This document shows positions 1-12,935 of a DNA stretch of 12,935 bases, piece after piece. The notes under the pieces were generated by a model. That model ran no database searches. It saw only the letters and a program-made list of their open reading frames with translations, and was not told where the DNA came from. The first letter of the stretch is position 1; each line of letters opens with the position of its first letter. The stretch is from the IMG/VR virus record IMGVR_UViG_2579779007_000003. One strand, written 5' to 3'. The stretch comes from a virus. Its lineage: Duplodnaviria; Heunggongvirae; Uroviricota; Caudoviricetes. The position numbers and the translations under genes are program-made.

Positions 1-731
1 CGCTGTTACCCCGCCAGCCGTTATTGCTGTCCGGGCCACAGCCGCTGGCATTACCTGCACCACGCCCTGTACTGGCATTACCCCCACCCGGCGTACCGGT
101 AACAGCACGGCCTGCACCATTACCTTTACCCGGTAAATCCGGTCTTCTGAGCAGGCTTGCAGGCAGTGCTGCCGGGCAACTGGTTACGGGAACGGTCGGA
201 AAGCTGGCTGATGCCGGGCGTGCCGCTGGCGGGTGGTTTTCCGGTATCGGAAACAAACTTGCAGGCAGTGCGATCGGTCGGGTTGTGACAAAAGGTGCCG
301 GGGCGCTGGGCTGGATGGGAAAAGGTGCCGGTCGTGCGTTGTCACGTCTGGGTAGCCCGCTAATGGGGGCACTCCAGCTTGCCCCCGTCCTGATGGATGA
401 GCAGGCGTCAACCCATGAAAAAGCAGGCGCAATTGGCAGTACAGCCGGTGCATGGCTCGGCGGTGCCGTTGGCAGCCTTGCCGGACCGCTGGGTACGGTT
501 GCCGGTGCCACGCTGGGCAGTGTCGCCGGGGAGTATCTGGGCGGTTTTGTAACCGACCTGTATCAGAAATGGACGGCCCCGGATAAGGAGCCGCAGGAAC
601 AAAAAGTGAATGCGGAAGCCTCGTTGCGCGTCGAACTTGGCGAGGGGTTACGTCTGACCAGTTCACGCGTCACCGAGGACGGTATGGGGCTGAATATTTA
701 CGCGGGCGATAACTACATTACGGGCTGGTAA
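1..731 (+). CDS. Tail tape-measure protein, C-terminal fragment (5' end lies outside the window)
   Basis: Frame is open from the window edge (codons phased from position 3) to a stop at 729-731. Translation is Pro-rich, then Gly/Ala-rich with hydrophobic stretches, typical of tape-measure C-termini. It sits immediately upstream of the N-like gene, as in Mu. Product assignment is by position and composition only. Confidence 0.5.
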
Positions 732-735
732 AACC

Positions 736-2223
736 ATGTTTGAAGATGCTTTAAATGCCGTTAATGCTGTCCGGGATAAAACCGGTGGAGGCAAGAAAAC
801 AACCGGCAAAGGCACGTTCCGTAACGTGCCGTTTCTCGTCATCGAGGAGCAAAAACAGGCTGGCGGACGTCGCCTAGTTAAACGTGAGTACCCGTTACGT
901 GATACCGGCGGCGTCAATGACCTGGGGAAAAAGCTTCGCTCCCGTACATTCAGCGTCTGCATTCTGAACAGCAACGCAGAAACAGCCAGAGATGAAGCGG
1001 GTGCGCTGATGGATGCTCTTGATGCTCCGGGTAGCGGTGAGCTGGTACATCCTGATTTCGGCACTGTGGACGTCATGGTGGATTCATGGGAATGCCGCAC
1101 TAAAGCGGATGAACTGAATTATTACGCGTTCACCGTTACTGTTTATCCGTCGTTGCAGGATACTGCCCCGGACGCAGAGACAGACACCAGTGCAGCCGTA
1201 CCGGCACAGGCCGTTGCTGTAACCGGTTCTCTGGGAGATACACTGTCCTCTGTCTGGCAGACCGTAAAAGATGGCACTGCGGCGGCAACCGCCGTGATGG
1301 AAGCTGTAACCGGTGTCATCGATGATATCAGTGATGCGGTGGACAATCTGGGGGTTACGCAGACTGTCAGCGGTCTGATGGGATCGCTTTCTGCGATGAA
1401 AGGCTCTGTGACCAGCCTGATTAACCAGCCTGCCATGCTGGCCTCCTCGCTGATGGGGGCGCTGTCCGGCGTTTCATCGTTATGCGATACCCGGACAGCA
1501 TTTTCCACCTGGAACCGTCTGGCGCAGCGATTCGAACGTCGCCATGCCGCCACCGCAGGCAGACAGGGGACAATCACAACCTCGTACAACAGTCCGGTTG
1601 CAGAAAAAAATATTGCCACACTGAACTACGTCATGCTGGCAGCGGCGCAGACATACCGGGCAGAAGCTGCCAGCCAGGCACTGACTGCGGCACTGGATTT
1701 CAGTCGCCGGATGGATAATGCCGCCCGTGCACCTGTACTGGATGCCCCGTCCACCACAACCGGCACAGCCAGCGGGGCCAGCAGCACATCTGCTACCGTC
1801 ACACAGGGACAGTTACAGTTAACTGCCATAACCCCGGACGGCGGCTTTTCACAGGTATCCTTTTCAGACAGTGGTACAGCCACGCCCCCGGTATTTGAAA
1901 GTGTGTCCGATATCGGAAAAACAGCCGCCATGCTGGGGGCTGCACTGGATACCGTCATTCTGACGGCATCTGAGCAGGGCTTTTCGACAGACAGCGTTCA
2001 GCTTACGCAACTGCGTCTGCTGGTTGTTGCCGACCTGGAAAAACGCGGGCTGCAACTGGCGGGCAGTGAAACGCACCGCCTGCCGGAGACGATGCCTGCA
2101 ATGGTGGCCCTGTACCGTTACACAGGAAACAGCCGGAACTGGCAACGGCTGGCCCGCAGGAACGGTATCAGCAACCCGTTGTTTGTTCCCGGTGGTGTCA
2201 GTATTGAGGTGATTAATGAGTAA
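736..2223 (+). CDS. N: Mu gpN-like tail protein (DNA circularisation protein family)
   Basis: 495-aa ORF starting 4 bp after the upstream stop. Size and position (after the tape measure, before the P-like gene) match Mu N. Its 3' end overlaps the next start by 8 nt (ATG 2216, stop 2221-2223). Confidence 0.7.
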
Positions 2224-3349
2224 TACCGTCACGCTGCGAACGGATGGCAGGCTTTTTACCGGCTGGACGTCAGTCTCTGTCACCCGCTCGATTGAATCCG
2301 TAGCCGGATATTTTGAGCTGGGGGTGAACGTGCCACCGGGTACGGATTTATCCGGGCTGGCACCGGGGAAGGCGTTCACGCTGGAAATCGGGGGGCAGAT
2401 TGTCTGCACCGGTTATATCGATTCACGGCGACGCCAGATGACCGCTGACAGTATGAAAATCACTGTCGCCGGACGTGACAAAACGGCTGACCTGATTGAC
2501 TGTGCTGCCGTTTACAGTGGCGGACAGTGGAAAAACCGCACACTGGAGCAGATTGCGCGTGACCTGTGCGCCCCTTATGGCGTTACCGTTCGCTGGGAGC
2601 TTTCCGATAAGGAAAGTTCGGCAGTTTTTCCCGGCTTCACGCTGGACCATTCAGAAACCGTTTATGAGGCGCTGGTGCGTGCCTCCCGCGCACGCGGTGT
2701 ACTGATGACCAGCAATGCCGCCGGGGAGCTGGTATTCAGCCGGGCTGCCAGCACAGCCACTGATGAGCTGGTTCTCGGAGAAAATCTGCTGACACTGGAT
2801 TTTGAGGAAGACTTCCGCGACCGGTTCAGCGAATACACCGTCAAGGGGTATGCCCGCACAAATGGTGCTGAGGGTGATGATATTGATGCGAAAAGTATCG
2901 TCTCCCGGAAAGGGACCGCCACGGACAGTGATGTGACCCGTTACAGACCGATGATCATCATTGCTGACAGCAAAATTACGGCGAAGGATGCACAGGCCCG
3001 CGCCCTGCGTGAGCAGCGCCGCAGACTGGCAAAATCCATCACCTTTGAGGCAGAAATTGACGGATGGACACGCAAGGACGGGCAACTCTGGATGCCGAAC
3101 CTGCTGGTCACTATTGATGCCTCGAAATATGCCATCAAAACCACAGAATTACTGGTCAGCAAAGTCAACCTGATACTGAATGACCAGGACGGGCTGAAAA
3201 CCCGCGTCAGCCTTTCACCACGCGAAGGCTTTCTGGTGCCGGTTGAAAGTGACCGTAAAAACAAAAGTGACAATAACGGCGGTATTGATGCGCTGGTTGA
3301 AGATTATTATCGCAGACACCCGGAGAAAACGCCGCCGTGGAAAGAGTAA
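2216..3349 (+). CDS. P: Mu gpP-like tail/baseplate protein
   Basis: 377-aa ORF, translationally coupled to N by overlap. Position and size match the Mu P tail protein. Confidence 0.65.
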
Positions 3350-3930
3350 ATGATTCCGCCATGAACCGCCTGCTGATGCCGCTGATGCGTCGTGTGCGCC
3401 TGATGCTTGCGCGTGCCGTTGTTAACGTGATTAACGACGGGCGAAAGGTTCAGAACCTGCAGGTTGGTCTGCTGGATGATGAGGAATCTGATGAAGTGGA
3501 GCGCCTGCAAAATTACGGGCATTTCAGCGTTCCTCTGCCGGGCGCAGAGGCGCTGATTGCCTGTGTGGGTGCACAACGTGATCAGGGGATTGCCGTTGTG
3601 GTGGAAGACCGCCGCTACCGCCCGACAAATCTTGAACCGGGTGATGCTGGCATTTACCACCACGAGGGGCATCGTATCAGGCTGACAAAGGACGGACGCT
3701 GCATCATTACCTGTAAAACGGTTGAGGTTTACGCTGATGAAAGTATGACCGTTGACACACCCAGAACCACGTTTACCGGCGACGTTGAGATCCAGAAAGG
3801 TCTGGGCGTTAAAGGTAAAAGCCAGTTCGACAGCAATATTACTGCCCCGGATGCCATCATCAATGGCAAATCGACGGATAAGCATATCCACCGTGGCGAT
3901 AGCGGCGGAACCACGGGGCCAATGCAATGA
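3337..3930 (+). CDS. Baseplate assembly/spike protein (P2 gpV-type; Mu gp45 position)
   Basis: 197-aa ORF in the baseplate block. The start is uncertain (ATG at 3337 overlaps the upstream gene; an alternative Met lies at 3361). Assigned by size and gene order. Confidence 0.6.
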   Translation: MERVNDSAMNRLLMPLMRRVRLMLARAVVNVINDGRKVQNLQVGLLDDEESDEVERLQNYGHFSVPLPGAEALIACVGAQRDQGIAVVVEDRRYRPTNLEPGDAGIYHHEGHRIRLTKDGRCIITCKTVEVYADESMTVDTPRTTFTGDVEIQKGLGVKGKSQFDSNITAPDAIINGKSTDKHIHRGDSGGTTGPMQ

Positions 3931-4364
3931 CCGATTTAGCCATTATCTGGACGAACGGACGCGGCGATATTGCACAGGATGGCATTGATATGCTGACCGA
4001 CGACAGCCTGACAACCGATGTGACAATCTCCCTGTTTACCGACCGGCGCGCGCTGGATTCTGACACGCTGCCGGATGGTTCAGATGATCGCCGTGGATGG
4101 TGGGGTGACAGTTACCGCGACCGCCCCATCGGTTCGCGGTTGTGGCTGTTATCACGTGAAAAAGCCACACCGGATACGCTGGAACGCGCCAGAGGGTATG
4201 CCGAAGAGGCGCTGGAATGGCTGAAAACAGCGGGCCGGGTAAGTGCGATTAACGTCAGGGCGGAACAGTTACATCAGGGCTGGTTATACCTCTACATTGC
4301 ACTGACATTACCGGATGGTTCCGTTATTCCTTATGAGTTTAAAGCAGCATTTAACGGGGTTTAA
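3927..4364 (+). CDS. Baseplate protein, GP46 / T4 gp25-like (P2 gpW-type)
   Basis: 145-aa ORF whose start overlaps the upstream stop in an ATGA motif (3927-3930). Small acidic baseplate-wedge-type protein at the expected position. Confidence 0.6.
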   Translation: MTDLAIIWTNGRGDIAQDGIDMLTDDSLTTDVTISLFTDRRALDSDTLPDGSDDRRGWWGDSYRDRPIGSRLWLLSREKATPDTLERARGYAEEALEWLKTAGRVSAINVRAEQLHQGWLYLYIALTLPDGSVIPYEFKAAFNGV

Positions 4365-5447
4365 ATGGCTTATTCACCACCGACATTATCATCGCTGATT
4401 GCCCGTACAGAACAGAATATTGAACAGCGCCTGCCGGGTAGCTGGCCTCAGGCCCGTGAAAAAACGCTGAGTGCCATTGCTTATGCTCAGGCGGGCCTTG
4501 CTGCCGGTTGTCACGAGCATATTTCATGGGTTGGACGGCAGATTATCCCGTCGACAGCAGATGAAGATGAGTTGCTGGAGCACTGCCGGTTCTGGGGGGT
4601 GCGCCGCAAACAGGCGACAGCCGCCAGCGGCCCGCTGACTGTCACCACATCGGCAGCGACCACCATTCCTGCCGGTACACGCTGGCAGCGTGCTGATGGT
4701 GTGGTTTACAGCCTGGCTGATGCCATTGTGATTGACCGTGCAGGAACGACGGAAATTACCGTTACCGCACTGGCTGCCGGTGAGGCAGGAAATACCGGTG
4801 AGAATACCCTTTTAACGTTGATCACCCCGGTTGCCTGTGTTGTTTCCGATGCCATCACTGTAAAAGGGTTTTCCGGTGGAGCTGATATTGAGAGTGCAGC
4901 GGAGCTGCTGTCACGGCTGGAATATCGTGTCCAGTATCCTCCGTTCGGCGGTAATCAGTTTGATTACGTCCGCTGGGCACGTGAAGTCAGCGGCGTTACC
5001 CGTGCCTGGTGTTTTCCGACATGGAAAGGCGGTGGCACAGTCGGGGTGACGTTTGTTATGGATAACCGGAGCAATATTTTTCCACAACCGGCAGACGTGG
5101 AACGCGTGGCGGATTATATCGCCGGTCATACTGACCCGATCACCGGTCTGATTGTCGGACAGCCTGACGGTGTAAATGTCACTGTATTTGCGCCAAAGGC
5201 AAAGCCGGTAAATCCACGGATTTATATATCACCGAAGACAGCCGAACTGAAACAGGCTATTACCCACGCCATTAATACCATGTTTTTTAATGAGGTGACG
5301 CCGGGCGGCGCACTTGCCCCCTCCCGTATTATCCGTGCGGTGGCAGGTGTTACCGGTCTGGATGATTTTGAAGTGCGTTTCCCGACAGAGATCCAGCGTT
5401 CGGAGAATACGGAACTGTTAACACCGGGGACAATTGAATGGCTGTAA
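4365..5447 (+). CDS. Baseplate J-like protein (P2 gpJ-type)
   Basis: 360-aa ORF starting immediately after the upstream stop (TAA then ATG at 4365). Size and order match the Mu/P2 baseplate J family. Confidence 0.65.
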   Translation: MAYSPPTLSSLIARTEQNIEQRLPGSWPQAREKTLSAIAYAQAGLAAGCHEHISWVGRQIIPSTADEDELLEHCRFWGVRRKQATAASGPLTVTTSAATTIPAGTRWQRADGVVYSLADAIVIDRAGTTEITVTALAAGEAGNTGENTLLTLITPVACVVSDAITVKGFSGGADIESAAELLSRLEYRVQYPPFGGNQFDYVRWAREVSGVTRAWCFPTWKGGGTVGVTFVMDNRSNIFPQPADVERVADYIAGHTDPITGLIVGQPDGVNVTVFAPKAKPVNPRIYISPKTAELKQAITHAINTMFFNEVTPGGALAPSRIIRAVAGVTGLDDFEVRFPTEIQRSENTELLTPGTIEWL

Positions 5448-5980
5448 CACCCTATCAGACGGCCTTTCTGCAATTACTGCCGTCAGGGCTTGCCTGGAAT
5501 AAAAGCCCCGACAGCAAATTATCTGCGCTGGCGCAGGCCATCAGTGACGTGATTGCCACTGCGGCGGATGATGCGCGGCAAATGCTGCGGGAGCGTTTCC
5601 CGTCCACATCCCGCTGGTATCTGGGGGAGTGGGAATCATTTCTGGGGTTGCCTGACTGTACCAGCGAAAACGGCACCCTGTCCGAACGCCAGCGGGCTGC
5701 CGCGAATAAAATGCGTATGACCGGCAATCTGAGTCGGCGTTTTTATGAATGGCTGGCTGCGCAGTACGGTTTTACCGTCAGGCTGACGGATTCCACAGAA
5801 GGCCAGTGGGTTACGCAGGTCAATATTTACGGTATTAAAAATTATCGCAACGCAACGGTGCTGGATAATGTTCTGACGCCGTTACGTGTTTATGAATCGG
5901 GTGCGCTGGAATGTTTACTGGAGAAATATAAACCCGCGCATCAGATTTATAAATTTGTTTACCATGACGGAGATAACTAA
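5438..5980 (+). CDS. Tail protein, P2 gpI-like (YmfQ-like)
   Basis: 180-aa ORF overlapping the upstream gene by 10 nt and the downstream S start by 1 nt (TAATG at 5976-5982). It occupies the position just before the tail-fibre gene, as in Mu and P2. Confidence 0.6.
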   Translation: MAVTPYQTAFLQLLPSGLAWNKSPDSKLSALAQAISDVIATAADDARQMLRERFPSTSRWYLGEWESFLGLPDCTSENGTLSERQRAAANKMRMTGNLSRRFYEWLAAQYGFTVRLTDSTEGQWVTQVNIYGIKNYRNATVLDNVLTPLRVYESGALECLLEKYKPAHQIYKFVYHDGDN

Positions 5981-7197
5981 TGTTTTATATTGATAACGAC
6001 AGCGGCGTAACCGTCATGCCGCCCGTATCCGCCCAGCGTAGTGCTATCGTTCGCTGGTTTTCAGAAGGTGACGGGAATAATGTTATCACATGGCCCGGCA
6101 TGGACTGGTTTAATATTGTTCAGGCGGAGTTATTAAACACGCTGGAAGAAGCCGGTATTCAACCGGATAAAACAAAATTAAACCAGCTTGCACTGTCCAT
6201 TAAAGCCATTATGAGCAATAACGCGCTGCTGATAAAAAATAACCTCAGCGAAATTAAAATTGCCGGGGCATCAGCACAGCGTACAGCACGTGAAAATCTG
6301 GATATCTATGATGCCAGCCTGAACAAAAAAGGACTCGTTCAGCTAACCAGTGCCACTGACAGCCCCAGTGAAACGCTGGCAGCCACCGCAAAAGCGGTGA
6401 AAATTGCGATGGATAATGCCAATGCCCGTCTGGCAAAAGACCGGAACGGAGCAGATATTCCCAATAAGCCGCTATTTATCCAAAACCTCGGTTTACGAGA
6501 ACTCGGCACAAGCGGGGAGAAAATACCGTTACTCAGTACAGCGAATACCTGGACTAATCGACAAACATTCAGCGGTGGCCTTTCTGGGGAACTGTCCGGC
6601 AATGCCGCTACTGCAACAAAGCTGAAAACAGCACGAAAAATTGCTGGAGTTGGTTTTGATGGTTCTAGCGATATTTCAATTAGTGCCAAAAATGTCAATG
6701 CATTTGCACTCCGACAAACAGGTAATACTGTTAATGGTGATACATCCGTTGGATGGAATTGGGATAGTGGTGCATATAACGCCCTGATTGGTGGTGCATC
6801 TGCATTAATTCTTCACTTTAATATAAATGCTGGTAGCTGTCCTGCCGTACAATTCCGTGTGAATTATAAAAATGGTGGCATTTCCTACAGGTCGGCTCGT
6901 GATGGTTATGGGTTTGAATTAGGTTGGTCAGATTTCTATACCACGACACGAAAACCTTCAGCGGGAGATGTTGGTGCATATACTCAGGCAGAATGTAACT
7001 CAAGGTTTATTACAGGTATTCGCCTTGGCGGTCTGTCATCTGTTCAGACATGGAATGGTCCCGGCTGGTCTGACAGGTCAGGTTATGTCGTTACGGGTTC
7101 AGTTAACGGAAACCGTGATGAATTAATTGATACAACTCAGGCAAGGCCAATTCAGTATTGCATTAATGGGACGTGGTATAATGCGGGGAGTATTTAA
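5980..7197 (+). CDS. S: Tail fibre protein S (constant part Sc about 5980-6489 fused to variable part Sv 6490-7197 in the present orientation)
   Basis: 405-aa ORF. It contains the conserved tail-fibre motif KKGLVQLTSATDSPSETLAATAKAVK and ends in the INGTWYN C-terminal motif. The gix-like site at 6476-6501 lies inside it and encodes IQNLGL. Confidence 0.8.
   Translation: MFYIDNDSGVTVMPPVSAQRSAIVRWFSEGDGNNVITWPGMDWFNIVQAELLNTLEEAGIQPDKTKLNQLALSIKAIMSNNALLIKNNLSEIKIAGASAQRTARENLDIYDASLNKKGLVQLTSATDSPSETLAATAKAVKIAMDNANARLAKDRNGADIPNKPLFIQNLGLRELGTSGEKIPLLSTANTWTNRQTFSGGLSGELSGNAATATKLKTARKIAGVGFDGSSDISISAKNVNAFALRQTGNTVNGDTSVGWNWDSGAYNALIGGASALILHFNINAGSCPAVQFRVNYKNGGISYRSARDGYGFELGWSDFYTTTRKPSAGDVGAYTQAECNSRFITGIRLGGLSSVQTWNGPGWSDRSGYVVTGSVNGNRDELIDTTQARPIQYCINGTWYNAGSI
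6476..6501. other. gix-like recombination site, left (gixL)
   Basis: TTATCCAAAACCTCGGTTTACGAGAA, made of two 12-bp imperfect inverted half-sites around a 2-bp core (TC at 6488-6489). It is present in inverted orientation at 9530-9555, matching 23 of 26 positions. It resembles the Gin/Hin/Cin/Pin crossover-site family. Confidence 0.8.
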
Positions 7198-7199
7198 CG

Positions 7200-7733
7200 A
7201 TGATGCACTTAAAAAACATTACTGCTGGCAACCCTAAAACAAAAGAGCAATACCAGCTAACAAAGCAATTTAACATCAAATGGCTTTATTCAGATGATGG
7301 AAAAAACTGGTATGAGGAACAAAAGAATTTCCAGCCAGACACTTTGAAAATGGTCTATGACCATAACGGCGTTATTATTTGTATTGAAAAGGATGTTTCA
7401 GCAATTAATCCGGAAGGCGCAAGCGTCGTTGAATTACCTGATATTACAGCAAATCGCCGGGCTGATATTTCGGGTAAATGGATGTTCAAAGATGGCGTAG
7501 TGGTAAAGCGAACTTATACCGAGGAAGAGCAGAGGCAGCAGGCGGAAAATGAAAAGCAAAGCCTGCTACAGCTCGTCAGGGATAAAACCCAGCTATGGGA
7601 CTCACAGCTACGGCTGGGCATCATTTCCGACGAGAATAAACAAAAATTAACAGAGTGGATGCTCTTTGCGCAGAAAGTCGAATCTACAGACACTTCCAGC
7701 CTGCCAGTAACGTTTCCAGAACAACCAGAATGA
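7200..7733 (+). CDS. U: Tail fibre assembly protein U
   Basis: 177-aa ORF starting MMHLKNI, 2 bp after the S stop. It is paralogous to the - strand ORF at 7762-8289 over most of its length. Confidence 0.8.
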   Translation: MMHLKNITAGNPKTKEQYQLTKQFNIKWLYSDDGKNWYEEQKNFQPDTLKMVYDHNGVIICIEKDVSAINPEGASVVELPDITANRRADISGKWMFKDGVVVKRTYTEEEQRQQAENEKQSLLQLVRDKTQLWDSQLRLGIISDENKQKLTEWMLFAQKVESTDTSSLPVTFPEQPE

Positions 7734-7736
7734 AAC

Positions 7737-7766
7737 AAGGCCCGCTATCGGGCCTTAATTTTTATT
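7737..7766. terminator. Bidirectional intrinsic terminator between the convergent U and U' genes
   Basis: Hairpin AAGGCCCG-CTAT-CGGGCCTT (7737-7756) followed by AATTTTTATT, 3 bp after the U stop. On the - strand the same hairpin sits just after the U' stop (7762-7764). Confidence 0.6.
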
Positions 7767-8289
7767 CAGGCTTTTGTGGCCATTCAGGATTTGCCGTATC
7801 CACACGGCTGACCAGAACACTGTAGCGTTCCCATGACTCCAGTCGTGCGCGTTCCTCATCCGTCGCCATATTCAGCCTGACGGCGCGTTCCAGTGGCTGA
7901 ATAACGCTTTCTGCTTCGGAAAGTAACGCGGCCTTTTGTGATTCTGCCTGTTGTTGCTGTTCGTCTGCCGTATAAATCCGTTTAACCACAGCTCCATCCT
8001 TAAACATCCACTTTCCTGAATCATCAGCGCGGCGGTTGGCTGTAATATCTGGAACCTCAACGACGCTAAAACCTTCAGGGTTAAGCGTGGAGGCATCTTT
8101 AGTGATGGCGACAATAATATTATTTGCATCGTAAACAATCTTTATTGTGTCTGGCTGAAAGTTTTTCACTTCCTCATACCAGTTTTTTTCGTCCTCAGAG
8201 TAAAGCCAGATGACTCCGTGCTTCTTTGTTAACTCATACTGCTCCAGTGTTTTAGCATTACCCGCTTTTATATTCTTTAAGTGCATCAT
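7762..8289 (-). CDS. Tail fibre assembly protein U' (alternative, expressed after inversion)
   Basis: 175-aa ORF starting MMHLKNI on the - strand, paralogous to U with a divergent C-terminal half. It is located inside the invertible segment. Confidence 0.75.
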
Positions 8290-8290
8290 A

Positions 8291-9541
8291 TTAAACGCTC
8301 GCTACATTATACCAGGTGCCATTTATATACTTTTGAACGGGTCTGTAATAAACGCCAGCTATATTATCGGCAGAATTGGACCCTGTATCCTGAACATTTA
8401 TACCAGACAATACATGACCTGAAGGGCACTGGAAGTTCCATGTTTGCCAGTTGTTCACACCATAATATTGCTGTGAGCCAAGCCGAACATCTTTCACATA
8501 TCGGGAATCAATGTTACCCCAGTTGCTTGGTTGTATCTGACCGTTTACAGCAAATATCACCGAGTTATCTGTATTTCGCTGACTATAGAAATGCCAGCCT
8601 GAATCATCACCAAGCTCTGCAACAGTTGGTCTTGACGAATTTCCCCACAAGTTAAATGATGCATTACGGGCAGCGGTATTTGCACTTGAAAGTGTGAAGA
8701 ACTTACTTTCCCCAGCCTGAATACCCTTTAATGATCTTGCTGAACCATTTATAAAGCGGAATACATGCACACCATTAGCATAAGCATCCAGCACCCCATC
8801 ACCATTTTGTTTAAACCCGGTATCGTTATCTCCTAAAACTATTGAATTTCCACCCAGGGCATTAGCCGTTCCAATCCCCAGATTTCCGCTAAAAATGGCA
8901 TTAATACCGAATATTGAGTGAGAACAATAAAACCCTCGCCCATTGTTAAAATCCAGAATGGCTTGTGCGTTCGTGCTTTCTGTCGCGGGATTAGTTGCTC
9001 CCCACTTATATGTTGTTTGACCGACGGTATAATCCTGAGTTGGAACAATAACCGTTAGCCCTTCTTCAGCAGAAACCCGCACAGGAAAAGCCCTGCCTTC
9101 AACGTAAAAAACGCTGCATACATCATCTTCTTTAAGGCTTGTTACAATGGAGTGGATTGCGCGCTCATTAGTCTGATACGTCGAAAAATAACCTGCCGCA
9201 TATGAACCACGATCAGTCCAGCCACCAGGCATTACCATTCCATTGAATTCGCAGTTATTCATTTCGTAATTACCACCGGCAGATGTGGTCGTTATAATCA
9301 CTCTGGAAGCCAGCTCGCCAGTGCTGCCTGTGGAACGCTGGAAAATAACTGGATACCACTTTCCACCAACAGCATTAGACGGCGCGTTAAATACGTACTG
9401 CCGCATTCCTTTTTTCTTATCCACCTCGCCTTTGCTGTAAACATTAATGTTACTCAGGAAGCGATCCTTATCAGGAATATCCGCGCCGTTCTGGTTTTTT
9501 TGTAATGCGCCAGAAGCCTGATTTACCGTTTCCTGCAAACC
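8291..9541 (-). CDS. Alternative tail-fibre variable segment Sv' (no start of its own; becomes the 3' part of S after inversion)
   Basis: The - strand frame is open from the gixR core (9542-9543) to a stop at 8291-8293. It encodes IQNLGLQE at the gix site in the same phase as S and ends in [12 protein letters not shown]. Sc (509 nt) plus Sv' (1252 nt) gives 1761 nt, an in-frame 586-aa fusion. The six-frame ORF extending on to 9724 is antisense to gin and not coding. Confidence 0.7.
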
Positions 9542-9555
9542 GAGGTTTTGGATAA
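9530..9555. other. gix-like recombination site, right (gixR)
   Basis: TTCCTGCAAACCGAGGTTTTGGATAA, the inverted copy of the 6476-6501 site, with core GA at 9542-9543 (reverse complement TC). Confidence 0.8.
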
Positions 9556-9609
9556 TGGCTGTTTCCGGCCTGCATGGCATGATTTGCGCTTTTAAACGGG
9601 AGATCCAGA

Positions 9610-10203
9610 GTGCTGATTGGCTATATAAGGGTATCAACAAATGACCAGAATACAGACCTGCAACGAAACGCTCTTGTTTGTGCAGGATGTGAACAAATAT
9701 TTGAAGATAAATTAAGCGGGACAAAGACAGACCGACCGGGATTAAAACGCGCTTTAAAGCGCCTTCAAAAAGGTGACACGCTGGTTGTCTGGAAACTGGA
9801 TCGCCTCGGGCGAAGCATGAAACATCTGATTTCTCTCGTCGGGGAACTACGGGAGCGAGGGATTAATTTTCGCAGTCTGACCGACAGCATAGACACATCT
9901 TCTCCAATGGGGCGTTTTTTCTTCCACGTTATGGGTGCTCTGGCTGAAATGGAACGAGAACTAATTATCGAGCGAACGATGGCTGGACTTGCTGCCGCCA
10001 GAAATAAAGGCCGTATTAGTGGGCGACCACCTAAACTAACCAAAGCAGAGTGGGAGCAGGCCGGGCGTTTATTAGCACAAGGAATCCCCCGCAAGCAGGT
10101 CGCATTGATCTACGATGTGGCCCTCTCAACTCTGTATAAAAAACACCCTGCGAAACGAACGCATATAGAAAACGACGATCGAATCAATCAAATCGATCGG
10201 TAA
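9610..10203 (+). CDS. gin: Serine recombinase / DNA invertase, Gin/Hin/Cin/Pin family
   Basis: 197-aa ORF starting at GTG 9610 with GGGAG upstream. The N-terminus MLIGYIRVSTNDQNTDLQ carries the catalytic serine motif, and the C-terminus has a helix-turn-helix region. It lies immediately right of the invertible segment. The recombinational enhancer is known to lie within the 5' part of gin in this family; it was not mapped here. Confidence 0.9.
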   Translation: MLIGYIRVSTNDQNTDLQRNALVCAGCEQIFEDKLSGTKTDRPGLKRALKRLQKGDTLVVWKLDRLGRSMKHLISLVGELRERGINFRSLTDSIDTSSPMGRFFFHVMGALAEMERELIIERTMAGLAAARNKGRISGRPPKLTKAEWEQAGRLLAQGIPRKQVALIYDVALSTLYKKHPAKRTHIENDDRINQIDR

Positions 10204-10211
10204 TACAGATC
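10177..10211. promoter_or_regulatory. Cluster of three GATC (Dam) sites upstream of the com-mom promoter
   Basis: GATC at 10177-10180, 10195-10198 and 10208-10211, all within 35 bp at the 3' end of gin. This matches the known Dam-methylation-dependent control region of the Mu mom operon. Confidence 0.7.
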
Positions 10212-10285
10212 GATTATGCCCTAATAACCACACTTAACCCACGATGTTTTTTAAGATAGTGGCGAATTGATGCAAAGGAGGTGAG
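10212..10285 (+). promoter_or_regulatory. Candidate mom-operon promoter region
   Basis: Contains a TTAT-N6-ATAA dyad (10214-10227), a T6 run (10247-10252) next to -10-like hexamers (TAAGAT or GATAGT, 10252-10260), and AGGAGG (10276-10281) before the com ATG. The exact -35 and -10 elements and the transcription start are not resolved. Confidence 0.45.
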
Positions 10286-10474
10286 ATGAAATCAATTCGC
10301 TGTAAAAACTGCAACAAACTGTTATTTAAGGCGGATTCCTTTGTTCACATTGAAATCAGGTGTCCGCGTTGCAAACGTCACATCATAATGCTGAATGCCT
10401 GCGAGCATCCCACGGAGAAACATTGTGGGAAAAGAGAAGAAATCACGCATTCTGACGAAACCGTGCGTTATTGA
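10286..10474 (+). CDS. com: Com, zinc-finger translational activator of mom
   Basis: 62-aa [38 protein letters not shown] with CxxC-(17)-CxxC zinc-binding spacing and a strong RBS. It is near-identical to Mu Com as I recall it, and is followed by the overlapping mom gene. Confidence 0.9.
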
Positions 10475-11132
10475 GTATGAAGGCCAGATTGTTGGCTATG
10501 GTTCAAAGGAGCTGCGCGTTGAAACCATATCCTGCTGGCTAGCCCGCACAATTATTCAGACAAAGCACTATTCCCGCCGTTTTGTGAATAACTCTTACCT
10601 TCACCTGGGGGTATTCAGCGGACGCGATCTGGTTGGCGTTCTCCAGTGGGGATATGCCCTTAACCCCAACTCAGGTCGTCGTGTCGTGCTTGAAACGGAT
10701 AACCGGGGCTATATGGAGTTGAACCGCATGTGGCTACACGACGACATGCCCCGCAACTCTGAATCACGGGCCATTAGCTACGCGCTGAAAGTTATCAGAT
10801 TACTGTATCCGTCAGTGGAGTGGGTTCAGTCCTTTGCTGACGAACGCTGCGGACGCGCAGGCGTTGTGTATCAGGCGTCGAATTTTGATTTTATTGGCAG
10901 CCATGAAAGCACGTTCTACGAGCTGGATGGTGAGTGGTATCACGAGATAACGATGAACGCGATTAAGCGAGGTGGACAACGAGGCGTGTATTTACGGGCT
11001 AATAAAGAGCGTGCCGTGGTGCACAAATTTAATCAGTATCGCTACATCAGATTCCTGAACAAGCGAGCAAGGAAGCGGCTAAATACCAAGCTATTTAGGG
11101 TTCAGCCGTACCCTAAAAGCACTCCCGATTAG
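10395..11132 (+). CDS. mom: Mom DNA-modification protein (adenine modification, anti-restriction)
   Basis: Longest ORF in this frame (245 aa), overlapping the 3' end of com and ending at TAG 11130-11132. The true start is uncertain: in-frame candidates are ATG 10395 and GTG 10425, and there is no in-frame ATG after the com stop. Assigned from the Gin-Com-Mom order and my recollection of Mu Mom. Confidence 0.8.
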
Positions 11133-11215
11133 TATCAAATAATTTTTCGTTGTGCCGTTTTGGGTGGTATCAAAAAAAATCCAAAACGGTATCAAATGAT
11201 TTTGCGCGCTTTATG
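11133..11215. other. Element terminus / junction region between the Mu-like segment and the lambdoid stf
   Basis: 83 bp between the mom stop and the stf divergence point. It contains three direct copies of GTATCAAA (11132-11139, 11167-11174, 11189-11196) and TTTTTCGTTGTGCCGTTTTG (11143-11162). I could not recognise canonical Mu R1/R2 transposase-binding sites here. Confidence 0.4.
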
Positions 11216-12754
11216 AACTATCCCTTTCTGTGCTGTCGTTGCATCCTGTGCGGTGTATTTCCCGTTAGCCAGGTCATACGCGGCCTTAACTGCTTTTGGC
11301 GTTGCCGCCAGTGACTCGGAAGTGCTGTTAGTCGCACTGCTGAGCTGTACTATCCCCTTTTTCGTCGTGCTCGCATCCTCAAGCGCCACGGCGGATGCAA
11401 TATCCTCTGCCCGTTTTGCCGCTGTCTCAGCGCGCGTTGCTGCGGATTCTGCCGTACTTTTGCTCTGTGCTGCCGCTGCCGCACTGCCAGCTGCCTCTGT
11501 CGCCTTCGTGGATGCTGTCGTGGCGCTGCCCTTCGCTGCTGACGCCTGTCTGGTCGCCTCATCTTTTGAAGCAGACGCCGATGATGCCGATGACGCCGCC
11601 GAACTGGCGGACGATGCGGCAGCCGTTTTTGAGGATTCTGCGTTGGTTTCCGACGCTTTCGCGTTCGTTTCGGATGTCTTCGCTGCGGAAGCAGACCTCG
11701 CTGCTGCGCTGGCCTGTTCAGTGGCTTCGCCAGCCTTCGTTGTGGCTGTTGAAGCGGATGATGCGGCGCTTTCTGCCGATTTTCCGGCGGCGGTGGCACT
11801 GGCTGAGGCCTGCCCGGCACTTGTTGACGCGGCACTGGCCGACGACACAGCCGCTGTTTTTGAGCCTGCTGCTGCGGAGGCACTCTGTGCTGCTGCCGTT
11901 TCAGAGGACTTGGCGTTTGTCTCAGACGTCTTTGCCGCCTTCGCGGAATTTCCTGCCGCCGTTGCCGAGGAAGCTGCACTACTGGCGCTTGATGATGCGT
12001 TCGTTTCTGATGATTTCGCCGCCTCTTTTGAGGCCGCCGCATCCCGGGCTGAGGTGGCAGCTTCTGACGCTTTCGTGGTCGCGGTGGATGCAGAAGTGGC
12101 TGCTGATTGTTGTGACGCTGCGGCATTCGTTTCTGACGTTTTCGCGGCACTGGCACTGGTAGCTGCCGCGCTTTTTGAGGACTCTGCAGCAGCAGCACTT
12201 TTCGATGCTTCACTGGCCTTTGTTGATGCCGTTCCTGCGCTGGAAGACGCTGACTGAGCCGACGACGCGGCCTGTCCGGCTGACGTGCTGGCTGCACGTG
12301 CTGAATCTGCAGCATCAGTCGCACGGGTTGCCGCCTCACTGGCAGATGTGCTGGCATCACTGGCTGACTTCTTTGCGGCTGCCGTGTTCTGTGCCACCAC
12401 GGACGCGTTACGCGCCACCTCTTCCACCATCAGTTCAAAACGACGCAGTGCCTCCGGACGGGCATCATCCTCCGTCATGGCACCGAGAAAATCATTCAGC
12501 GTACCGGGTTGAGAATCTTCATACACGGTGATGGTCCCGGCATGTGACGGCGGGAATCCTTCCACCAACAGAATAACGCTGTACTGACCGTACTCAACGT
12601 CCATGCTGTAACGCCCGGCTTCATCCGGATTTTCTGAGGCCAGCGTGTTCACCACCACAGTGGTACTGTTACGTTTTGCTTTCAGCTGGATTGTGCAGTT
12701 CTGTACCGGTTTTCCTGTGCCGTCTTTCAGTACACCTGAAATCTTTACTGCCAT
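11192..12754 (-). CDS. stf: Lambdoid side tail fibre protein Stf, N-terminal about 520 aa, truncated at the junction
   Basis: Starts at ATG 12752-12754 (MAVKISGVLKDGTGKPVQNCTIQLKA, the lambda Stf N-terminus) with GGGGTG upstream; the six-frame track begins 2 codons earlier at GTG. It has a long Ala/Ser/Thr-rich repeat region and the conserved KGIVQLSSATNSTSESLAATPKAVK motif. After a second QKGIV copy the frame reads HKARKII then stop (TGA at 11192-11194) instead of continuing the motif. Confidence 0.85.
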   Translation of the reverse strand: MAVKISGVLKDGTGKPVQNCTIQLKAKRNSTTVVVNTLASENPDEAGRYSMDVEYGQYSVILLVEGFPPSHAGTITVYEDSQPGTLNDFLGAMTEDDARPEALRRFELMVEEVARNASVVAQNTAAAKKSASDASTSASEAATRATDAADSARAASTSAGQAASSAQSASSSAGTASTKASEASKSAAAAESSKSAAATSASAAKTSETNAAASQQSAATSASTATTKASEAATSARDAAASKEAAKSSETNASSSASSAASSATAAGNSAKAAKTSETNAKSSETAAAQSASAAAGSKTAAVSSASAASTSAGQASASATAAGKSAESAASSASTATTKAGEATEQASAAARSASAAKTSETNAKASETNAESSKTAAASSASSAASSASSASASKDEATRQASAAKGSATTASTKATEAAGSAAAAAQSKSTAESAATRAETAAKRAEDIASAVALEDASTTKKGIVQLSSATNSTSESLAATPKAVKAAYDLANGKYTAQDATTAQKGIVHKARKII

Positions 12755-12765
12755 ATTCACCCCAC

Positions 12766-12792
12766 AAAAAAGCCCGCCTGAACCGGCGGGCT
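12766..12792 (-). terminator. Intrinsic terminator downstream of lom (- strand)
   Basis: On the - strand: stem GCCCGCC, loop GGTTCA, stem GGCGGGC, followed by TTTTTT (plus-strand A-run 12766-12771). It lies between the lom stop and the stf RBS. Confidence 0.6.
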
Positions 12793-12818
12793 GTCATAAC
12801 ACTGTGTTACCTGGCTAA

Positions 12819-12935
12819 TCAGAATTTATAACCGACACCCACGATGAAACCGTCAGTGCGCCAGTCACCACTGCCGGAGCCTTCATAAGCAATATCAATG
12901 GCCACGGATTCGGTCGGGTTAAACTGCACGCCAGC
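12819..12935 (-). CDS. lom: Lom/Ail/PagC-family outer-membrane protein, C-terminal fragment (5' end lies outside the window)
   Basis: The - strand translation ends ...IAYEGSGSGDWRTDGFIVGVGYKF then stop (12819-12821). An aromatic-X-aromatic C-terminus is typical of beta-barrel outer-membrane proteins, and the position upstream of stf is as in lambda. Confidence 0.65.
   Translation of the reverse strand, partial: AGVQFNPTESVAIDIAYEGSGSGDWRTDGFIVGVGYKF

Follow-up and report, generated by a model that had tools for sequence, protein, structure and literature searches.

The right terminus of a TA-ended Mu-type prophage joined to a truncated side-tail-fibre gene of a lambdoid prophage

IMG/VR record IMGVR_UViG_2579779007_000003 (Caudoviricetes) is a stretch of 12,935 nt that we refer to as the window and by whose positions all coordinates are given. 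Its first 11.2 kb (1..11213, plus strand) are the right-hand part of a Mu-type (Muvirus) prophage, recognised by identity to relatives and by Pfam domains and running in the order tape-measure C-terminus, N (DNA circularisation), baseplate genes, S/U, G segment, gin, com, mom and right end. The rest, read on the minus strand, comprises a truncated lambdoid side-tail-fibre gene, stf (11192..12754), and the 3′ end of a lom/ail-family outer-membrane protein gene (12819..12935), lom lying upstream of stf as it does in lambda. Element and stf meet at an insertion junction, 11213..11214, at which A is the last base of the element and T the first base of stf. A sequence-only reading of the window had proposed that a Mu-like element ending after mom abuts, tail-to-tail, an stf that has lost its receptor-binding C-terminus, and had left two mechanisms open, namely insertion into a resident prophage and illegitimate recombination between two prophages.

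The joint was located by megablast of positions 10900-11500 (601 nt) against 5,426 complete Escherichia coli genomes. The query splits between its bases 314 and 315, which correspond to window 11213/11214: 10900-11213 matches Mu-type prophages beside mom (annotated 'protein mom'), 11214-11500 matches genes annotated 'prophage tail fiber N-terminal domain-containing protein' at up to 99.3%, and none of the 5,426 genomes has a match that spans the joint. A four-way alignment shows Mu-type sequence up to …GCGCGCTTTA and stf sequence from TGAACTATCCC… on, with homology changing within one base and with no shared repeat at the 11213/11214 switch. The arrangement described by the sequence-only reading is thus borne out, homology to Mu-type prophages stopping at 11213 and that to stf, convergent with mom, starting at 11214; its coordinates were correct (including the switch at 11213-11215), and its distance of 83 bp from mom to the junction agrees within 2 bp with the 81 bp by which we find the element to extend beyond the mom stop codon (which ends at 11132). 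Rfam and tRNA scans of the window returned no matches, and a terminator and promoter scan around the junction gave nothing informative.

The stf open reading frame (ORF), counted from its ATG, occupies 11192-12754 (11192-12760 if counted from GTG) and encodes 520 aa, beginning with the PF08400 phage_tail_N domain (E = 3e-72), continuing as an Ala/Ser-rich shaft and ending …TTKKGIVQLSSATNSTSESLAATPKAVKAAYDLANGKYTAQDATTAQKGIVHKARKII before the stop. The segment KKGIVQLSSATNS (the KGIVQLSSATNS repeat) occurs once, at ~11321-11356, and is followed toward the C-terminus by TTAQKGIV (11216-11239), HKARKII and the stop codon (11192-11194), such that the product terminates just inside repeat 2, only the first residues of which follow repeat 1. 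Strain 2014C-4587 (NZ_CP027342) encodes an intact homologue, a 971-aa Stf whose gene is flanked by tfa and, at its other end, by lom and gpJ. At the site corresponding to the break it reads …TAQKGIVQLSSATNS…, continuing as …TAQKGIV-QLSSATNS… where the window Stf has …TAQKGIV-HKARKII and a stop; it carries three copies of the repeat (Phage_fiber_2 in Pfam) and then a Collar domain, and a Caudo_TAP gene lies downstream. Window positions 11214-12935 are collinear with the stf-lom stretch of the intact prophage, without gaps, over 1722 bp at 96.2% identity, and the lom fragment is assigned from this collinearity (L001, annotated as Ail/Lom family and then gpJ). Both the PF08400 domain and the position downstream of lom and J mark the window gene as stf, although it is without complete C-terminal repeats, the collar, the distal domain and the tfa gene that would follow, and the proposed loss of the receptor-binding C-terminal half is confirmed by the comparison of 520 with 971 aa. 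Pfam reports the N-terminal domain alone for 11195-12754 (minus strand) despite one complete Phage_fiber_2-type repeat, three of which score in the intact homologue; this is likely a bias or threshold effect in an Ala/Ser-rich protein.

The codons KARKII and the stop that follows, which the intact gene does not share at this site, are encoded by the right end of the Mu-type element: positions 11192-11213 supply them together with the third base of the H codon, which straddles the joint with C and A from stf and T from the element. A prophage of the same lineage in GCA_031626895.1 (L009) is inserted into a P2-like prophage beside the gpO scaffold gene, where a small interrupted ORF of 52 aa (L009:10798-10956) ends …LALKARKII, the tail borne by the truncated Stf. 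Because this ORF is unrelated to stf, the tail must be read from the end of the element and does not belong to stf. A naturally occurring stf allele with HKARKII at its end, which the sequence-only reading had named as one way in which its proposal might fail, is refuted by this shared tail and by the read-through of the intact Stf to QLSSATNS. The other such way, that 11133-11215 might be contiguous with stf in uninterrupted phages, is refuted as well, since 11133-11213 is contiguous with mom in Mu-type prophages.

The terminal nucleotide is fixed by 17 other junctions of the lineage (16 distinct), which were drawn from complete genomes, contigs with an identical Mom protein, one Yersinia phage record and IMG/VR. 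In these, the 81 bp that follow mom show full or near identity and end at …GCGCGCTTTA, after which the sequences diverge at once; the first flanking base may be A, C, G or T, and the flanks are unrelated to one another (mscM, pyrF-yciH, an epimerase gene, glpT, ydcO, ydcV-patD, motA and others, as well as a Dpd cluster, the P2-like prophage and IMG/VR contigs). Among the 24 longest-contig blocks of 69 obtained by look-up of the exact Mom protein, there are 10 other insertion sites, none of them in stf. The break in the window is far beyond chance, since it coincides with the terminal nucleotide of all of these junctions; together with the P2-like ORF that bears the same tail, they establish that the joint is a canonical transposon terminus, and neither a natural ending of stf nor a random recombination joint. 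That two prophages were joined here by illegitimate recombination, or that stf is a naturally short allele ending …QKGIVHKARKII, is accordingly hard to credit at all: nothing beyond the caution of the sequence-only reading speaks for either, the break falls on the very terminus of 17 other junctions, the tail codons belong to the end of the element and recur on an unrelated ORF, an intact stf reads through the site, and the junction is found in no other stf of the 5,426 complete E. coli genomes.

We hold, with a high degree of confidence, that a transposable Mu-type phage integrated into the stf of a resident lambdoid prophage. Of the two mechanisms left open, the evidence favours insertion rather than illegitimate recombination, given that stf alone is broken and that the element meets it exactly with its canonical terminus. 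The phage would have entered, by DDE transposition, the stf of a lambdoid prophage already in the chromosome, the 3′-terminal A of the element (11213) becoming linked to stf where the second KGIVQLSSATNS repeat begins. Translation of stf would then run 7 codons into the terminal, candidate transposase-binding region of the element before stopping, and the product would keep its N-terminal tail-attachment domain, Ala/Ser-rich shaft and one repeat while losing ~458 residues, comprising two repeats, the collar domain and the distal receptor-binding part. The insert of ~37 kb would also separate stf from its chaperone gene tfa, and the distal half of stf, together with a duplicated TGAA, would be expected at the left end of the element, ~26 kb left of the window, in the form …GCTGAGCTGAA/TAT(A/G)… (a slash marks the terminus here and below).

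Several points weigh against this interpretation. The window holds the right junction only, the left end lying outside it; a 31-mer across the junction is absent from GTDB species representatives, IMG/VR and JGI metagenomes; no complete E. coli genome, phage record or plasmid record spans the junction; and the exact truncated Stf protein is absent from protein records. The distal part of stf and the duplication could since have been parted from the left end by a rearrangement, whether Mu-mediated or homologous. Furthermore, the termini read TA and not CA, and the mechanism is therefore taken from family membership. It is because the left end lies outside the window and no source genome matches that the distal stf and the duplication are given as predictions, and that some weight, small in both cases, is reserved for rearrangement and, smaller still, for artefact.

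Mu-type virion genomes carry 0.5-3 kb of host DNA at their right end, and the 1722 bp beyond the right end in the window fall within the size range of such packaged flanks; the GenBank record of the Yersinia phage vB_YpM_5 shows one, as 79 bp of non-phage DNA between the phage ends. The junction might on these grounds be an artefact of assembly or packaging, either a virion-DNA consensus that includes host flank or a chimeric contig of two prophages, but we consider this highly improbable. A chimera needs a shared repeat, whereas homology here switches within one base, and a random chimera would fall on the exact terminal nucleotide about once in 10^4-10^5 cases; a packaged flank, for its part, would still mean that transposition into stf had truly occurred in some cell.

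The termini of the lineage, and the target duplication to be expected from them, were determined from six complete prophages in which both flanks could be compared (L018:2037, L006:2636, L017 in reverse complement, L020:1385, L022 in reverse complement, and L024), TD225-C4 being left out since its left end lies outside the stretch taken. The lineage has TA at both termini: the right end in the window (11212-11213) reads …TTTA and the left ends of the relatives start TAT…, and the terminal TG…CA that characterises Muvirus is not found. In A21 the flanks are …GAGTA/TATTGAG… and …CTTTA/AGTAGACC, with AGTA duplicated; when one AGTA is taken out, the resulting 400-nt empty site finds full-length matches in 5,422 genomes (at least 95% identity in all, 100% in the best), from which it follows that the duplication is 4 bp and not 5 bp. 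Other boundaries for the element (dropping the terminal T and A, or taking TA as the target duplication) do not fit the A21 empty site. In RM8082 (CGAA) and JCKP02 (TAAG), the interrupted reading frames are restored only by removing 4 bp, and three more prophages carry AGCC (WS1933D), GTGA (strain 1290) and TTAA (S6). S6 alone fits either 4 or 5 bp, and a 5-bp duplication is thus ruled out in five of the six prophages. As a control, a canonical Mu-type prophage in E. coli W treated likewise gives TG…CA and the 5-bp repeat GCCGC. The target duplication is 5 bp in Mu and 6 bp in B3, and terminal CA is, to our knowledge, regarded as near-universal. The sequence-only reading had advised looking for a 5-bp target duplication, an expectation that the relatives do not bear out; given the 4-bp duplications of the six complete relatives, the one to be expected here is TGAA (11214..11217), with a second copy predicted at the left end.

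The same six prophages bear on whether, after transposition, a rearrangement left the right end beside the proximal half of stf, with the distal half elsewhere or lost, either by intramolecular replicative transposition (an adjacent deletion or inversion) or by recombination between two copies of the element. Mu-type elements are known to produce such changes, at least one genome, that of strain 12A, has two places that match this right end, and the left junction lies outside the reach of the records searched. However, all six complete prophages of the lineage are simple insertions with matching duplications, and the window shows no sign of a second copy of the element; we regard a rearrangement as unlikely, and simple integration into stf as the explanation to be preferred.

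The left-end genes of the lineage are known from the relatives, in which a DDE transposase of the Mu family and a MuB ATPase are present. Their MuB is 99% identical to that of Mu (in the complete prophages; L018:5366-6301 in RM8082), their repressor is of the CI/XRE type, and their transposase (L018:3234-5324 in RM8082) is 25% identical to MuA, with the exception of its last 29 residues (DDEYETERDEYLNHSLDILEQNRRKKAI), which are identical to the C-terminus of MuA. The C-terminal part of MuA contacts MuB and ClpX. In Pfam the transposase matches Mu-transpos_C and, weakly, HTH_Tnp_Mu_1, and the DDE_2 and Iγ models of Mu are not matched; the nearest phage transposases are those of a Klebsiella Mu-like phage (43%) and of D3112-like Pseudomonas phages (~30% over 96% of length). 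Mu-like late genes and MuB set against foreign ends, repressor and transposase point to an exchange in which the ends, the immunity region and the body of the transposase would have been replaced as a functional set on a Mu backbone. The end module with its TA termini would then derive from a different Mu-family module, for which the six relatives indicate a 4-bp staggered cut, and the sequence identity at the C-terminus suggests that the swap kept the tail that interacts with MuB and ClpX.

The lineage is mobile and viable, as is evident from its many insertion sites and from the occurrence of the same ends in plaque-forming Yersinia phages (PMC10434027). Its right-end type is rare, occurring in 11 of the 5,426 complete E. 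coli genomes, versus 40 for the canonical Mu right end; a 26-mer of the right end is absent from GTDB species representatives and occurs in four IMG/VR contigs, all with non-stf flanks. The IMG/VR contig IMGVR_UViG_2778261638_000005 (L033, 70.7 kb) contains the right end internally, and the element may there be nested in, or adjoin, a second prophage. The copy closest to the window (L010:10776-20738, GCA_053340385.1; 98.75%) directly adjoins a Dpd cluster (DpdD/DpdG, 7-deazaguanine DNA modification). On balance, we think it probable that this is a functional enterobacterial Muvirus lineage, the Yersinia phages included, with an end module exchanged for a distant Mu-family one, whose transposase would cut at TA termini with a 4-bp stagger. 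If so, Leptospira would no longer be the only source of TA-TA transposable phages, and a 4-bp duplication would be seen in a transposable phage for the first time; a literature search, beyond which most subscription journals lay, found no 4-bp duplication for a Mu-like phage, and TA ends only in a paper on Leptospira prophages.

The right end itself (attR, 11133..11213, plus strand) is specific to the lineage and carries three direct GTATCAAA motifs and the terminal TA. It adjoins a Mu-like late region ending gin-com-mom, as in Muvirus; however, no match to Mu or D108 continues past 11116 or 11146, respectively, the right end of Mu is unrelated in sequence, and the last stretch matches, among phage genomes, only the Yersinia phages vB_YpM_5, vB_YpM_6 and Tongde. 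The GTATCAAA octamer occurs three times in the 12.9-kb window (0.48 expected by chance), all within 11132-11196. These copies, on the plus strand, are candidate transposase-binding sites: R1 (11189..11196), which read inward gives TTGATAC from base 19 counted from the terminus, R2 (11167..11174) and R3 (11132..11139), the last of which is the least convincing, since D108 shares part of the stretch and reads GTATCATA there. TTGATAC also stands at base 19 from the left terminus in seven relatives, and the distances of the direct motifs from the terminus are 19, 41 and 76 nt at the right end and, at the left end of the relatives, 19, 123 and 165 nt. In the inward direction, the right end reads TAAAGCGCGCAAAATCATTTGATAC… and the left ends of the relatives TAT(A/G/T)…(A/T)TTTGATAC…. 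A perfect 9-nt inverted repeat, CCGTTTTGG / CCAAAACGG (11155-11163 / 11181-11189, with a 17-nt spacer), surrounds the second GTATCAAA motif and could be a terminator for mom or part of a transposase site.

Over the remainder of the element, Pfam reports DNA_circ_N, Phage_fiber_2, Caudo_TAP, Resolvase, Zn_ribbon_Com and Mom, and 395-11213 is 98.75% identical to the L010 copy and 97-99.7% identical to the prophages in RM8082, WS1933D and A21. Identity with Mu is 96.8% over 9501-11116, and the match to D108 extends to 11146 at 96.4%. The plus-strand genes next to the terminus are gin, the G-segment invertase (9610..10203; Resolvase and HTH_7, 96-97% identical to gin of Mu and D108), com, the translational activator of mom (10286..10474; Zn_ribbon_Com), and mom, for adenine modification (10395..11132; PF25680 Mom, E = 3e-75; 245 aa from the upstream ATG, with TAG at 11130-11132 as its stop). 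Homology to Mu ceases 14 nt short of the mom stop codon (11119-11132), and Mom therefore ends …QPYPKSTPD here versus …QPYPK in Mu; the mom of D108 has the same longer type of ending. An inverted repeat of 26 nt, 88% complementary (6476-6501 / 9530-9555), flanks an invertible G segment of ~3.05 kb, in which S (5980-7197) and U (7200-7733) are oriented for expression and U′ (7762-8289) and S′ are on the minus strand; the variable parts of S and S′ vary among relatives.

The lambdoid prophage would lose its side fibres and, as in lambda PaPa, give a phage dependent on J alone, and ~48 kb together with the ~37-kb insert would exceed the packaging limit of lambda, such that the prophage would effectively be disabled unless the insert were lost. 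The event itself is an ordinary one, the same lineage having independently entered a P2-like prophage, and the junction offers a clean natural case of one prophage inactivating another. It also illustrates how a truncated gene can acquire a short 'foreign' C-terminal tail from a transposon end. As a natural hybrid of a Mu backbone and MuB with a 25%-identical transposase that bears the MuA C-terminal tail, the element makes it testable how far the 'conserved CA' and the 5-bp stagger depend on the architecture of the Mu transpososome, and what portion of MuA is sufficient for coupling with MuB and ClpX. In annotation, such prophages should be delimited by TA…TA and 4 bp, not by TG…CA and 5 bp.

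Among known systems, Mu and D108 share with the element gene order and ~97% nucleotide identity through gin, com and mom, as well as quasi-random insertion into many genes; the element differs from both over the last ~70-95 bp. The site layout of Mu is L1…L2-L3 on the left and R1-R2-R3 on the right, and the three direct repeats at each end of the lineage resemble it. The lineage departs from Mu in having TA…TA instead of TG…CA termini, a 4-bp instead of a 5-bp duplication, a transposase that is 25% identical to MuA save for the C-terminal 29 aa, and a repressor of the CI/XRE type. The Muvirus phages vB_YpM_5, vB_YpM_6 and vB_YpM_Tongde (PMC10434027) have the same right and left ends and a 99% identical transposase, and by these sequence measures belong to the same lineage as the window element; they are free phages isolated on Yersinia pestis, whereas the window element is a prophage nested in a lambdoid prophage, and the paper that describes them does not discuss termini or target duplication. 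In the 'circular' record of vB_YpM_5 (L004:4214-4292, MT374853.1), the right terminus (…CTTTA) is separated from the left terminus (TATGAAGAGG…) by 79 bp of non-phage DNA, presumably host flank that was packaged and then assembled with the phage genome. TA at both ends is also reported for prophages of Leptospira (Olo Ndela et al. 2021, PMC8705779), which leaves open whether TA-TA prophages occur in other bacteria; these have 6-bp repeats and a transposase of the B3/Tn552 family, in contrast to the 4 bp of the present lineage, which is thus not of the Leptospira type. D3112-like Pseudomonas phages such as Ab30 are the closest well-studied relatives of the transposase, although their morphogenesis genes are unrelated and Ab30 insertions show a 5-bp offset. 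On the other side of the junction, the stf of the window shares with lambda the lom-stf order and the PF08400 N-terminal domain. In laboratory lambda (lambda PaPa), stf is frameshifted, the side fibres are lost and the phage relies on J alone; what a frameshift did to stf there, the insertion of a ~37-kb transposable phage would have done to it here.

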